38,344 bases of DNA from Chloroflexota bacterium (GCA_027593235.1 JAQCIU010000029.1:1-38344), one strand, 5' to 3'. Shown: positions 5,946 through 11,836, numbered from the stretch's first letter. Notes: generated from the sequence alone by a model not told the origin. Made by a program: numbers and translations.

Positions 5946-6191
5946 CGGCATCGCAGCGTCTCGCCGCGTAGCGGCATTCGCCAACACCACGCCGCGTAGC
6001 GGCATCGCAGCGTCTCGCCGCGTAGCGGCATTCGCCAACACCACGCCGCGTAGCGGCATCGCAGCGTCTCGCCGCGTAGCGGCATTCGCCAACACCACGC
6101 CGCGTAGCGGCATCGCAGCGTCTCGCCCCGTAGCGGCATCGCCGGACACCCGCCGCGTAGCGGCATCGCAGCGTCTCGCCGCGTAGCGGCA
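5936..6191. repeat. Tandem array of 10 palindromic CGCCGCGTAGCGGCA cores with two alternating linkers (54-bp higher-order period), REP/BIME-like
   Basis: Cores start at 5936, 5962, 5990, 6016, 6044, 6070, 6098, 6124 (one mismatch), 6151 and 6177. Linkers alternate TCGCAGCGTCT and TTCGCCAACACCA, with one variant. Confidence 0.9.
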
Positions 6192-7647: not shown

Positions 7648-8397
7648 GTGAAGGTCACCGATCGCGCGTCGTCTGAAGTCGAAGGACGTTCAGTGGATCA
7701 GGACCAGCGGCTCTCGCGGAACGGCCGTCGACTCGCCTACGCGCTGGTCGGCGGCACGCTGGTCTACAACGTCTTCGAAGGCGTGATCGCGATCGCCAGC
7801 GGCCTCGCTGCCAGCAGCATCGTCCTGGTGACCTTCGGCATGGACAGCTACCTCGAGGTCATCGCCGCGGCCGCGGTGCTCTGGCGCCTTGCCGCTCCCA
7901 ACGACGAGGTTGGTGAGCGGCGGGAAGAGAAGGCGCTCCGCATCGTCGGCGCCAGTTTCCTGCTACTGGCCGCGGCCGTGGTACTCCAGGCGCTCCTCGC
8001 TCTCGGCGGCGCACGCGGCGCACGCGGCGCGGAGACCTCGACGGTCGGGCTCACGCTGTTGCTGGTCAGTCTGCTGCTGATGCCGGCGATCTCCATCGCC
8101 AAGCTCTGGGCCGCCGCGCGATGGACCGTGCCGTCCCTCGCCGCCGAGGCACGCGAGACCATCGCCTGTTCCTACCTGAGCCTGACGGCTCTCGTCGGCG
8201 TCGTTGCGACCGCCCTGATCGGCTGGTGGTGGCTCGATCCCGCGTTCGCGTTGCTCATGGTCCCCTGGCTCGTCCGCAAGGGACTCGAGGGCATCCGCGG
8301 CGACGCCTGCTTCGACGGCGCGACGCTCTGCTTCTGTCGCGAGTGCTGGTTCGGATCTCGCACCTGCGCCGCGGTCTGCTGCCCGGCTGTCGCCTGA
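7648..8397 (+). CDS. Cation-efflux (CDF-like) membrane protein with Cys-rich tail
   Basis: YNVFEGVIAIASG, FGMDSYLE, AEARETIACSYLS, GWWWLDP; start uncertain (7648 or 7694). Confidence 0.75.
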   Translation: MKVTDRASSEVEGRSVDQDQRLSRNGRRLAYALVGGTLVYNVFEGVIAIASGLAASSIVLVTFGMDSYLEVIAAAAVLWRLAAPNDEVGERREEKALRIVGASFLLLAAAVVLQALLALGGARGARGAETSTVGLTLLLVSLLLMPAISIAKLWAAARWTVPSLAAEARETIACSYLSLTALVGVVATALIGWWWLDPAFALLMVPWLVRKGLEGIRGDACFDGATLCFCRECWFGSRTCAAVCCPAVA

Positions 8398-8425: not shown

Positions 8426-9199
8426 CTAGCCCGCCGCGTACCCGCCGTCGACCGGCAGCACCACGCCCGTGACAAAGTCCGCGGCGTGCGATGCCAGGAA
8501 CACACCCGCGCCCGCAAGTTCGTCCGGCTCGCCGAAGCGACCGGCCGGCGTGCGGTAGATGATCCCCTCGTAGAAGCGCTGGTTGTCTTTCACCGGTGCC
8601 GTCATGTCCGTGGTGATCCACCCCGGCACGATCGCGTTCACCTGGATCCCGTCCACCGCCCAGCCCACCGCCAGCGACTTCGTGAGCTGCACCACCCCGC
8701 CCTTCGAGGACGGATAGGCGATCCCGCGCCCGCTGCCGAACAGCGAGTACTCCGAGGCGATGTTGATCACCTTGCCGCGCCCGCCGGACTTCAGCAGCGG
8801 GTACGCCACCTGCGCCGCCCAGAGCAACGACGACAGGTTCGTATCAATCACCAGCTGCCAGTCCGCCTCGCTGATGCTCTGCGCCTGCCCGCCGCGGGCG
8901 ACGCCCGCGTTGTTGACGAGGATGTCCAACCGCCCGTACTCGGACTCGCAGCGGGCGACCGCGGCCTCCAGGTCGGCGCGCACGTTCACGTCGCAGGTGA
9001 TGCCGGTGGCCGCCCCACCGCGCGACTGGATCGCCGCGACCGCCGCCGCGGTCTTCGCCTCGTTGCGTGCGGCGATCACCACCGAGGCGCCGGCTTCCGC
9101 CAGCCCGTCCGCGATCCCCTGGCCAATGCCGCCGTTGCCACCGGTCACCAGCGCGACGGTGCCACTCAGATCGAACAGCGCGCGCGCAGCCTCATTCAT
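8426..9199 (-). CDS. SDR-family oxidoreductase (KduD-like)
   Basis: TGGNGGIG, NNAG, YPSSK, VDGGY. Confidence 0.9.
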   Translation of the reverse strand: MNEAARALFDLSGTVALVTGGNGGIGQGIADGLAEAGASVVIAARNEAKTAAAVAAIQSRGGAATGITCDVNVRADLEAAVARCESEYGRLDILVNNAGVARGGQAQSISEADWQLVIDTNLSSLLWAAQVAYPLLKSGGRGKVINIASEYSLFGSGRGIAYPSSKGGVVQLTKSLAVGWAVDGIQVNAIVPGWITTDMTAPVKDNQRFYEGIIYRTPAGRFGEPDELAGAGVFLASHAADFVTGVVLPVDGGYAAG

Positions 9200-9241
9200 G
9201 GAGCCGGACTCCCTCGGTTCATCGCCTCAGGAGGCGGATGC

Positions 9242-9766
9242 CTAATCGATCAGCGATCCGAGAATCGAGTCGAAGACGGCTTCGGCCTTCATCCGCATCT
9301 CCGCGTCGGTCGCATCCTGGATTGGATGCTGGACGAAGACGCGCTTCACGTCGGGCAGGCCAAGCGCCTCGGCCTGCGCCGTGGCGGCCTCGACGAATTC
9401 GGTCGACGCCAAGAAGACTGACGGGATGCCCTGGATTTCGAAGGAAACGGTGTCGTGCACACTGCACGTTGTACAAGACCCTCAGTCGGCTAAGGCTTCA
9501 ATCACGAAGCCACATTCCTCCGCGATCTTCCGTCGCAGGTCCTCGGGGGCTGGCTTCGTGAACGTCGGCTTCGCGTAACGCCGCACCTCGACATCCGGCA
9601 GCCGCTCGTGGAACAGCTCCTCGAGGCGATCGAGCAGCACGTTCCCGCGCGGCTTCGAGATATCGAGGAACCCGACGGTCCCCGTGATGTGCTCCGGGCG
9701 CGGGGTCAGCTCACGCTTGACCGGCACCCGCTCGTCGGTCGGATCCAGGATCTGCATTGCAGCCAT
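9242..9766 (-). CDS. UGSC-family selenoprotein, 174 aa, Sec at the TGA 9482-9484
   Basis: Minus strand reads GCC GAC TGA GGG TCT TGT ACA ACG TGC AGT GTG CAC GAC = A-D-U-G-S-C-T-T-C-S-V-H-D. The flanking ORFs are in the same frame with no other stop, and a hairpin follows the TGA. Confidence 0.88.
9449..9481 (-). promoter_or_regulatory. Candidate bacterial SECIS element
   Basis: Directly 3' of the UGA: GGGUCU-UGU-ACAA-CGUGCA-GUG-UGCACG-ACA-CC. Perfect 6-bp upper stem (9454-9468) starts 13 nt after the UGA and has a G-containing loop. Confidence 0.6.
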
Positions 9767-11362
9767 CTAGGCCTCCTCGATCTTGCGACTCACGATCTGG
9801 GAGCCGCGTGGTCCGGTCGCCCAGCCCTGGAAGATCGAGGAAAACTTCCCCGCATCCGAGCCGGCAACAACAATATGAATACTACTGGGGTCCGCGAACT
9901 TCGGGATCCGCCGCTCCAACTGCTCCTCGGTCGGGCCGTCCGCGCCGAACATCGAGGGCGGTATCCCGGCCCCCGACTCCCCGTCCTGCAGCAGCTCGCG
10001 CACCGGCCGCGAGGTCACCTCCTGGATACGCGCGCGCAGCTCGTCCTTCGTCCACCCGTTGGTCTGCAACGTGTCGAGGTGCTCCGGGCACAGCACGAGG
10101 AACGTGTCGGACGCCCCGTGCCCCTTCGGGTGCGCGGTGCTCTCCAGCACCATCCCGATCGACCCGCCGATCTGGCGCGCATCCCTCGAGGTCTGGTCGA
10201 CAATCATCGTCGGCCCGCCCGTCGCCGCGAACAGCGTCACCACGGAATCCTCGGCCTTGAAGCCGTGCTCAACGTGGTACGGCTCCCACGGCGCGCGTTC
10301 CTCCCACTCTGCGAAGCAGAGCGTGTACTTCGACGGGCTGCTCAGCGTGGACCGCTCGGTCCCGCCCGGCCGTCCTCCGCCCACGTTCCGCAACACCAAC
10401 CGGATTGCCCGCCCGATCGCCGCGTTCGCGCGATGCCCCGTCCCCAGCGCGCCAAGCTTGTAGTTCAGCCCGATCTTGTCGCGAATTGGCCCGTTGATCA
10501 GCACCATCGGCGTCGCGCCCATCGTGGTCGCCGAAACGCCGTGGATGTTGAACTCGTCGGTACACATCGCCTCGACGGCGGTGAGCACGACCGGCAGGTA
10601 CTCCGGCTTGCAGCCCGCCATCACCGCGTTGATCGCGATCTTCTCGACAGTCGCCGGCGCCATGTTTGGCGGCACCACCGCCACGATCTCCTGCGAATCG
10701 CGCTTCGTGCCGCCCAGCATCCGCAGCACCCGCTCCGGCGTCGGCGGGATCACCGGTAGGCCATCGGTCAGGCCCTGGTCGTACATGAACTCGTGCACGT
10801 CGTCGTGGTCGCCGATCTCCACGCGCCGTGCGCGCAGCGGGCTGCCCTCGGACTCCGCGACCAGCCGCTCGTGGATGCCCGGCTCCACCGAGCGCGATCC
10901 GCAGCCCGGCCGCGACTCCGGGAACGCGTCCCACGCCACCTCCGGCTCCGCGAGCGCGGTCATCGAGGCCAGCTCGCCCACCACGCCGCGCCAGTCCTCG
11001 CGCCCAAATCCGACGAAGCTCCGCAGCTCCCGCCCGTCCCCGTCCGTCAGAAAGATCGAGGGCACCGTATCCAGCCCGTACGCGAACGACACGCCCAGCG
11101 CGTCGTCGTCCAGCATCGGCAGCGTCAGCCCGTGCTGCTCGATCAGCAGCGCGTTCCCGGGCGTGTCCTGTCCGATCGCCCAGACGTCGGCCGCCCCACC
11201 GAACGCCCGGTGCACCTGCTCGATCAGCGGAATCGAAAGCTGACAGGTCGCGCAATCCTCGTGCACGAAGCACAGCAGCGCCGGCCGCCCCGTCGGGAAC
11301 CGTCGCTCGGTGCCATCGCTATCGGTCAACGAAAACGGTCGCAGCGCGGTCTCGGTTGCCAT
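9767..11362 (-). CDS. Thioredoxin-fold (TlpA/AhpC-like, CATC) domain fused to the domain typically encoded beside UGSC proteins
   Basis: N-terminal FVHEDCATC and YGLDTVPSIFL; linker RPGCGSRS; C-terminal GLTDGLPVIPPTPERV, VEKIAINAVMAGC and RANAAIGRA. Its stop abuts the UGSC start. Confidence 0.75.
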   Translation of the reverse strand: MATETALRPFSLTDSDGTERRFPTGRPALLCFVHEDCATCQLSIPLIEQVHRAFGGAADVWAIGQDTPGNALLIEQHGLTLPMLDDDALGVSFAYGLDTVPSIFLTDGDGRELRSFVGFGREDWRGVVGELASMTALAEPEVAWDAFPESRPGCGSRSVEPGIHERLVAESEGSPLRARRVEIGDHDDVHEFMYDQGLTDGLPVIPPTPERVLRMLGGTKRDSQEIVAVVPPNMAPATVEKIAINAVMAGCKPEYLPVVLTAVEAMCTDEFNIHGVSATTMGATPMVLINGPIRDKIGLNYKLGALGTGHRANAAIGRAIRLVLRNVGGGRPGGTERSTLSSPSKYTLCFAEWEERAPWEPYHVEHGFKAEDSVVTLFAATGGPTMIVDQTSRDARQIGGSIGMVLESTAHPKGHGASDTFLVLCPEHLDTLQTNGWTKDELRARIQEVTSRPVRELLQDGESGAGIPPSMFGADGPTEEQLERRIPKFADPSSIHIVVAGSDAGKFSSIFQGWATGPRGSQIVSRKIEEA

Positions 11363-11515
11363 CGGAACCCCCATCGCAATCGACGATCGCGGTAAGCCTA
11401 CCACCCGCACCGCCGCCGACGCGGGTAGGCTAGCCCTCGCGCGATCGCGAGCCCCTCGCGCTCGACACCGCGCGAGCAGCATCCACGACACGCAAATCAC
11501 GAGGTGGGAGAAACG

Positions 11516-11836
11516 ATGTTCTTCGAGCTACGTCAGTACCTGGTCCGGCCCGGCAAGAAAGACGAATGGGTCCGCATGATGGAAGACGAAATCATCCCCT
11601 TCCAGCAGTCCCAGGGCATGGTCATCGTCGGCAGCTTCACCGGCGAAGAAGACGCCTCCACCTACGTCTGGATCCGCCGCTTCGACTCCGAGGCCGAGCG
11701 CGAGCAGCTCTACGCCAAGGTCTACGAGAGCGACCACTGGAAGAACGACATCGCCCCGAAGATCCCGGATCTGATCGACCGCGCCGGCATGAACATCCAG
11801 CGCATCGAGCCCACCAAGATCTCCGCCCTGCGCTAG
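11516..11836 (+). CDS. NIPSNAP-family protein
   Basis: MFFELRQYLVRPGK...YVWIRRF...VYESDHW; GGAG RBS. Confidence 0.85.
   Translation: MFFELRQYLVRPGKKDEWVRMMEDEIIPFQQSQGMVIVGSFTGEEDASTYVWIRRFDSEAEREQLYAKVYESDHWKNDIAPKIPDLIDRAGMNIQRIEPTKISALR

Follow-up and report, generated by a model that had tools for sequence, protein, structure and literature searches.

A conserved gene pair encoding a predicted UGSC selenoprotein and a redoxin-Unknown_1 fusion in Chloroflexota, and the kinship of UGSC with glycine and proline reductases

Introduction

Among the closest described systems are protein B of the glycine-reductase type (GrdB/F/H with GrdE/G/I), PrdAB and FarBE, and the chemical detail of selenocysteine (Sec) catalysis by GrdB-type proteins and PrdAB forms the background of the present analysis. 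With the gene pair described below, these systems share a homologous Sec-bearing segment with a UxxC(xxC) motif, a two-subunit design and paralogue expansion. In passages of PMC13188914 and PMC10838667, the Sec of GrdB-type proteins attacks a polarised carbon, and PrdAB releases its product without substrate-level phosphorylation; FarBE is described in a passage of the latter as a proposed fluoroacetate reductase.

The UGSC family is listed in a passage of PMC1976440 with the function not known. Passages of Zhang and Gladyshev (2008; PMC2398784) report a fusion of UGSC to a domain termed Unknown_1, point out the AGC cysteine of the latter and give UGSC a "likely Trx-like fold," whereas the present UGSC model is flavodoxin-like; these passages and Fig. 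S1 of that paper mention no near-obligate operon, complex, electron donor or link to GrdB. A sequence-only reading of the locus analyzed here had called it a candidate for an undescribed system. This is too strong for the UGSC/Unknown_1 link, which has been in print since 2008; our literature search found nothing on the operon, complex or function of the pair.

Organization of the Locus

The analyzed stretch of DNA (38,344 nt), hereafter the window, is contig C33 of a Chloroflexota genome of 3.39 Mb that is 89.7% complete. Its relevant features are collected in Table 1. The gene layout of the sequence-only reading was confirmed by direct inspection: the TAG of the large gene (protein P0002) abuts the ATG of the UGSC gene (P0001) at 9766, and the ATG of the gene for a classical SDR at 9199 follows the UGSC stop by 42 nt. 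The CATC (C37/C40), PGCGSRS (C154), TDGLPVIPPT and AINAVMAGC blocks were all found in the large protein. The UGSC frame is read through a TGA and ends at the TAG 9242-9244, and the divergent NIPSNAP gene more likely starts at ATG 11516.

Table 1. Features of the locus and of related stand-alone redoxins (window positions unless a locus is named).
Feature	Coordinates	Strand	Evidence
Fusion protein P0002, 531 aa: TlpA/ResA-fold redoxin, PGC tail and Unknown_1 domain	9767..11362	-	
Redoxin domain, residues 1-137; C37xxC40 at 11243-11254	10952..11362	-	
RPGCGSRS tail (C154), Cys form of a putatively Sec-bearing tail	10889..10912	-	C154 in 111/111; TGA in 7 stand-alone redoxins
Unknown_1 domain, residues 176-531	9770..10837	-	identity to a row of Fig. 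S1A, PMC2398784
Unknown_1 loop, residues 272-281 (NIHGVSATTM), modeled as facing the Sec site	10520..10549	-	complex model
UGSC selenoprotein P0001 (predicted), 174 aa, U95-G-S-C98-T-T-C101	9242..9766	-	NF041046, PF24696
In-frame TGA, predicted selenocysteine	9482..9484	-	TGA kept in relatives; Sec machinery in genome
SECIS-like 6-bp hairpin, G-containing loop, starting 20 nt after UGA	9454..9468	-	covariation
Classical SDR, co-directional, optional neighbor	8426..9199	-	
TG-extended -10-like box upstream of the pair	11395..11404	-	
Second GGTAGGCT box, facing NIPSNAP	11424..11431	+	
NIPSNAP gene, divergent	11516..11836	+	PF07978
Stand-alone TlpA-fold redoxins with [KR]PG-TGA-xS[RL] and SECIS-like hairpin	L097:1474-1983, L152-L154, L156-L158		

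The conserved unit consists of two genes, UGSC and the large fusion, and not of four; the SDR and NIPSNAP genes are likely bystanders. In 75 of 80 loci, a UGSC gene shares the strand of Unknown_1 and lies within 400 bp of it, four of the five misses being at or near a contig edge and the fifth (L036) having little upstream sequence. The predicted co-occurrence of the two redox genes was borne out in the redoxin-fused loci, where UGSC lies directly downstream in 34 of 35 cases (the exception being a contig edge), as well as in 13/13 other such loci in 12 of 40 related genomes. Because the loci are related to one another and both sets have members in common, these counts are not independent. Both domains are joined in one chain in 30 of 150 representatives (UGSC first in 20 and last in 10), some of which may be gene-calling artefacts, and P0401 combines all three modules in a single chain. 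Three UGSC-Unknown_1 fusions with Cys in place of Sec (CGLC/CGIC; P0396, P0398 and P0400, of which P0398 is named Bacteroidaceae) have signal-peptide-like N-termini and are possibly exported forms.

The UGSC Selenoprotein and Its Relatives

P0001 scores 163.2 against NF041046 (cut-off 125) and 161.7 against PF24696 (cut-off 25; E = 2.4e-47), and it combines an in-frame TGA within U-G-S-C, a SECIS-like hairpin and a genome encoding selA, selB, selD and tRNA-Sec, as expected of a UGSC member. TGA occupies the Sec site in 77/77 UGSC genes across loci L001-L080. In the hairpin, 96% of cells are paired and 14 are compensatory (0/500 shuffles; above all slid controls) in a set of 39 distinct sequences from L001-L057 plus the window, whose relatedness and coding constraint inflate the result; folding energy alone was not significant. 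The TGA is thus predicted to encode selenocysteine 95. C98 is present in 70/70 aligned UGSC proteins, and C101, the third Cys of UxxCxxC, in just 35/70. Three database UGSC proteins (P0273, P0274 and P0275) have G, W or R in place of Sec, which are likely a TGA under the wrong code or sequence errors.

The structural model of UGSC (pLDDT 93) is flavodoxin-like and has no standout structural match. In hhalign comparisons, the UGSC profile aligned with 13 GrdB-type proteins at a probability of 96.2 (E = 2.3e-9), U on U, and with three PrdB-like proteins at 83.4; P0393 matches TIGR04483 (1.6e-5). Judging from these alignments, UGSC and the Sec-bearing end of GrdB/PrdB are homologous; with GrdB, the homology spans approximately 70 columns of a common flavodoxin-like fold. 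The differences from Grd/Prd protein B are that UGSC is without the PF07355 GRDB region (no match in P0001 or P0002 at E ≤ 0.1, nor in the whole genome at 1e-10), its partner does not belong to PF09338, no GrdA was found and the putative donor is fused. GrdA was sought without success in 8/8 pair-carrying genomes, including the present one, and was found in 2/2 controls; a self-contained, Prd-like cycle is therefore favored. By sequence, the two genes belong to UGSC and Unknown_1 (the small gene and the large domain, respectively, of the fusion in PMC2398784), and the pair would act like Grd/Prd protein B without being a member of it.

The Unknown_1 Domain and the Predicted Complex

No Pfam or NCBIfam family covers residues 176-531 of P0002. 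Counted by eye, the AINAVMAGC...NGP block is identical at 45/59 positions to the Sulfitobacter sequence in Fig. S1A of PMC2398784, by which the region is assigned to Unknown_1 of Zhang and Gladyshev. Relatives number at least 7998 and 5342 in two libraries, the latter at E ≤ 0.001, and C251 is present in 93% of 135 Unknown_1 sequences. The full-length model of P0002 has a pLDDT of 95.6, and fold searches with it were filled by matches to the redoxin domain. Profile comparison revealed no likeness of Unknown_1 to GrdB (probability 0.3), and a Pfam search of P0002 gave no match to PF09338, the GrdE/PrdA proprotein. A sister clade (L020-L035) has the redoxin-Unknown_1 and UGSC genes followed by one or two more stand-alone Unknown_1 genes, and tandem Unknown_1 fusions occur too, hinting at oligomers.

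The complex was modeled from P0002 and P0277, a natural Cys-form homologue 54% identical to P0001 and used in its place. It scored 0.84, the best of three controls scoring 0.00; the score mark was reached by 116/157 solved versus 2/215 mismatched pairs, counts that apply roughly, as our own alignments were used. At least 93% of contacts agree between runs, and the partner pLDDT is at least 90. The N-terminal arm of UGSC anchors on Unknown_1 residues 176-185 and 206-212, and the Sec-site residues of the partner (95-97 and 99-101) share the interface with loops 272-281 and 326-337 (T/S279, T280, N326, G328 and G329). Position 279 is T or S in 98% of sequences and T280 is retained in 90%; the interface as a whole shows no excess of conservation (0.50 vs. 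0.47 elsewhere). UGSC and Unknown_1 are thus predicted to bind as a heterodimer with Sec facing these two loops. As regards the proposed electron relay from the CxxC domain to the UxxC protein, binding is predicted, but the model names no residue of P0002 1-175 (including C37, C40 and C154) at the UGSC interface, and likewise not C251.

The Redoxin Domain and Its Tail Cysteine

Domain and structure searches identified residues 1-137 of P0002 as a TlpA/ResA-fold redoxin with a CxxC motif. TlpA, ResA and DsbE (CcmG) share with it the thioredoxin-like fold and the CxxC. P0002 differs from them in that no signal peptide or membrane anchor is evident at its N-terminus (hydropathy maximum 1.25), in its score against the ResA family (22.4, below the cut-off of 170), and in having a further, invariant Cys/Sec in the tail, which is retained even where the second CxxC cysteine is lost. 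The cysteines proved conserved, as expected by the sequence-only reading: of 111 full-length homologues, all have C37 and C154 and 105 have C40, and five distant fusions have lost C40 and retained the tail Cys. In the P0002 model, short bridges occur at residues 99-100 (before P101, the usual cis-proline position) and at 154-155, which would fit a tail seated in the substrate groove of the thioredoxin fold.

The suggested echo of the U/C-G-S motif in the linker gained substance from stand-alone homologues, in which the C154 position can be TGA. Among 18 loci with stand-alone redoxins, seven proteins end in [KR]PG-TGA-xS[RL] followed by a hairpin (z = -3.3 for L097), seven have Cys and four have no match. 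The place between grdA and grdB in grd operons normally holds thioredoxin. In two genomes (G213 and G303) a PG-TGA redoxin lies between grdA and grdB of a grdB-grdE-grdC-grdA operon, the two cases representing one family and not being independent; a homologue of the pair's redoxin is thus found inside grd operons. Because C154 is invariant and TGA takes its place in seven stand-alone redoxins, including the two from grd operons, the C154 tail is likely an electron-carrying arm.

The stand-alone PG-TGA redoxins constitute a candidate selenoprotein family. None of them passes an NCBIfam cut-off, and the [KR]PG-TGA-xS[RL] motif has no entry among the motifs of Table 1 (section 7) of PMC13188914, the comparison being by motif. 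The two Chloroflexota operons, L164 (G213:C216) and L167 (G303:C1), comprise three GrdB/GrdE paralogue sets together with GrdA and GrdC-beta, with the PG-TGA redoxin gene coupled to grdA.

Proposed Function

The large partner is predicted to bind UGSC and likely feeds it electrons; therefore, the two proteins likely form a widespread reductase. Specifically, UGSC and Unknown_1 may constitute a two-subunit, PrdAB-like Sec reductase that cleaves small organic substrates at a polar bond and is recharged by the redoxin via C154. We consider the chances of this reading evenly balanced, because we infer both the substrate and the chemistry. In such a cycle, Unknown_1 would bind and orient the substrate in place of the pyruvoyl subunit GrdE/PrdA, the Sec95 selenolate would attack it, and Cys98 would resolve the adduct and free the product, leaving an Se-S bond without involvement of GrdA. 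C154 would then reduce this bond after being loaded by C37 (C40 being dispensable in some homologues), which itself would be supplied from cellular thioredoxin reductase or thiols. Neither SDR nor NIPSNAP would be needed.

A betaproteobacterial genome (G339) has 31 UGSC matches. Within 20 of its regions (L183-L202), 22 of the 25 examined UGSC genes adjoin Unknown_1, one of which is redoxin-fused. The 119 neighboring genes include 38 for TctC, 5 for MmgE/PrpD and 4 for amidohydrolases; the density of TctC genes near the pairs is only about 1.8 times a rough genome rate (estimated from 824 candidate sites, 150 of them scored), the background in this genome being high. This arrangement fits substrate-specific paralogues with a common donor. 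So many paralogues amid catabolic and uptake genes argue against the same complex and relay serving an antioxidant or repair reductase of a peroxide, sulfoxide, N-oxide or disulfide, as do the flavodoxin-like rather than thioredoxin fold of UGSC and the almost constant adjacency of a 350-residue partner. We nonetheless give this role an appreciable, if minor, chance, considering the UxxC motif with invariant C98, the AhpC/TSA-type donor, the apparently largely aerobic hosts and the predominance of thiol-type oxidoreductases among prokaryotic selenoproteins stated in a passage of PMC13188914.

The redoxin is joined to Unknown_1 in 24 of 150 representatives. In keeping with the proposed recharging, Unknown_1 is also fused to an FTR-beta domain in P0153, and a TrxB-like gene adjoins it in 5 of 80 loci. 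That most Unknown_1 copies have no redoxin, together with the MmgE/PrpD and amidohydrolase genes in the betaproteobacterium, would be compatible with Sec as a covalent nucleophile without net redox change (in an isomerase, a lyase or a ring opening), the redoxin just reactivating oxidized enzyme. We regard this as rather improbable in view of the resolving C98 in all aligned proteins, the fact that electron donors of two kinds have been fused independently, and the known relatives, which are reductases.

If the reductase reading is followed further, UGSC and Unknown_1 could represent a third, large branch of the glycine/proline-reductase-type selenium enzymes, in which an unrelated substrate-binding subunit replaces the pyruvoyl proprotein and by which aerobic soil, freshwater and marine bacteria would reductively break C-N, C-S or C-halogen bonds in many organic compounds. 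Its power would come from an unlisted redoxin family whose swinging PG-Sec/Cys tail serves grd operons as well. We offer this wider view tentatively, as a conjecture somewhat less likely than not. With the partner and the electron-entry residue defined and the active-site interface predicted, the function of UGSC becomes a matter for a two-protein assay; and if the enzyme is Prd-like, the reductive cleavage of bonds with the help of selenium, which is known from anaerobes, would count among the common catabolic tools of aerobic heterotrophs.

Neighboring Genes and Promoter-Like Elements

The suggestion that the SDR is a core member or electron source of the system found no support in the comparison. 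An orthologue (≥55% identity) was found near Unknown_1 in 4 of 80 loci, all within the 35 fusion loci. Among related genomes, G003 and G016 have it as an adjacent gene and G014 has a split copy; G020, G021 and G034 carry it but lack the fusion. No intact copy was found in 10 of 12 related fusion genomes, one of which carries the adjacent split copy. In G021, the NIPSNAP and SDR genes face apart with no pair between them, and after them come the same genes for a CoA-transferase, an oligoribonuclease-like protein and an FKBP. SDRs pass hydride to carbonyls, not to disulfides. An NAD(P)H coupling step or a next pathway enzyme contributed by the SDR therefore strikes us as very unlikely, despite its co-directional position after a short gap, its orthologue occurring both upstream (L005, L010) and downstream (L001, L011) of the pair, and a non-orthologous SDR after UGSC in L015-L017. 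Some room for a same-pathway role is left because an SDR of any kind lies within ~5 kb in 13/35 fusion loci versus 11% of random windows of this genome.

NIPSNAP, for which membership likewise found no support, occurs in 6 of 80 loci, all from Dehalococcoidia, and 7 of 12 fusion genomes have it no more than 2.6 kb away; this linkage looks like family-level synteny. The linkage of both genes is attributed to an inherited neighborhood.

Both mirror-image boxes reported between the divergent genes exist, the plus-strand GGTAGGCT being located 1 nt from the earlier placement (11423-11430). The 3.39-Mb genome has 23 copies of this octamer, for an expectation of 0.001 per 142 bp, so that the pair exceeds chance. 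TAGGCT lies no more than 120 nt upstream of an ATG at 45/130 genome sites versus 72/1680 for the reversed control, suggesting -10-like behavior of this hexamer in the genome. The TG-n-TAGGCT/TAATCT box upstream of the large gene is kept in three relatives (L001-L003), and no conservation is visible for the plus-strand box facing NIPSNAP. Since a sigma-70 scanner gave 0 sites, the boxes remain candidate -10 elements.

Positions 7648-8397 of the window encode a short membrane protein that resembles cation-efflux proteins; its C-terminus is rich in Cys (CFCREC...CAAVCC), and its match to PF01545 is weak. The adjacency of this gene, and two stand-alone PGU redoxins beside NifU, rhodanese, ThiS or ThiF genes, could be taken to mean that the pair handles metals, sulfur or selenium and not an organic substrate; we deem this highly improbable, given that 1 of 80 loci has the efflux gene again and that no UGSC match was obtained in the genomes encoding those two redoxins. 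Elsewhere in the window, tandem repeats of ~51 nt at 5950-6170, between a CBS-domain-like gene and the CoA-transferase gene, are visible in spurious ORF translations.
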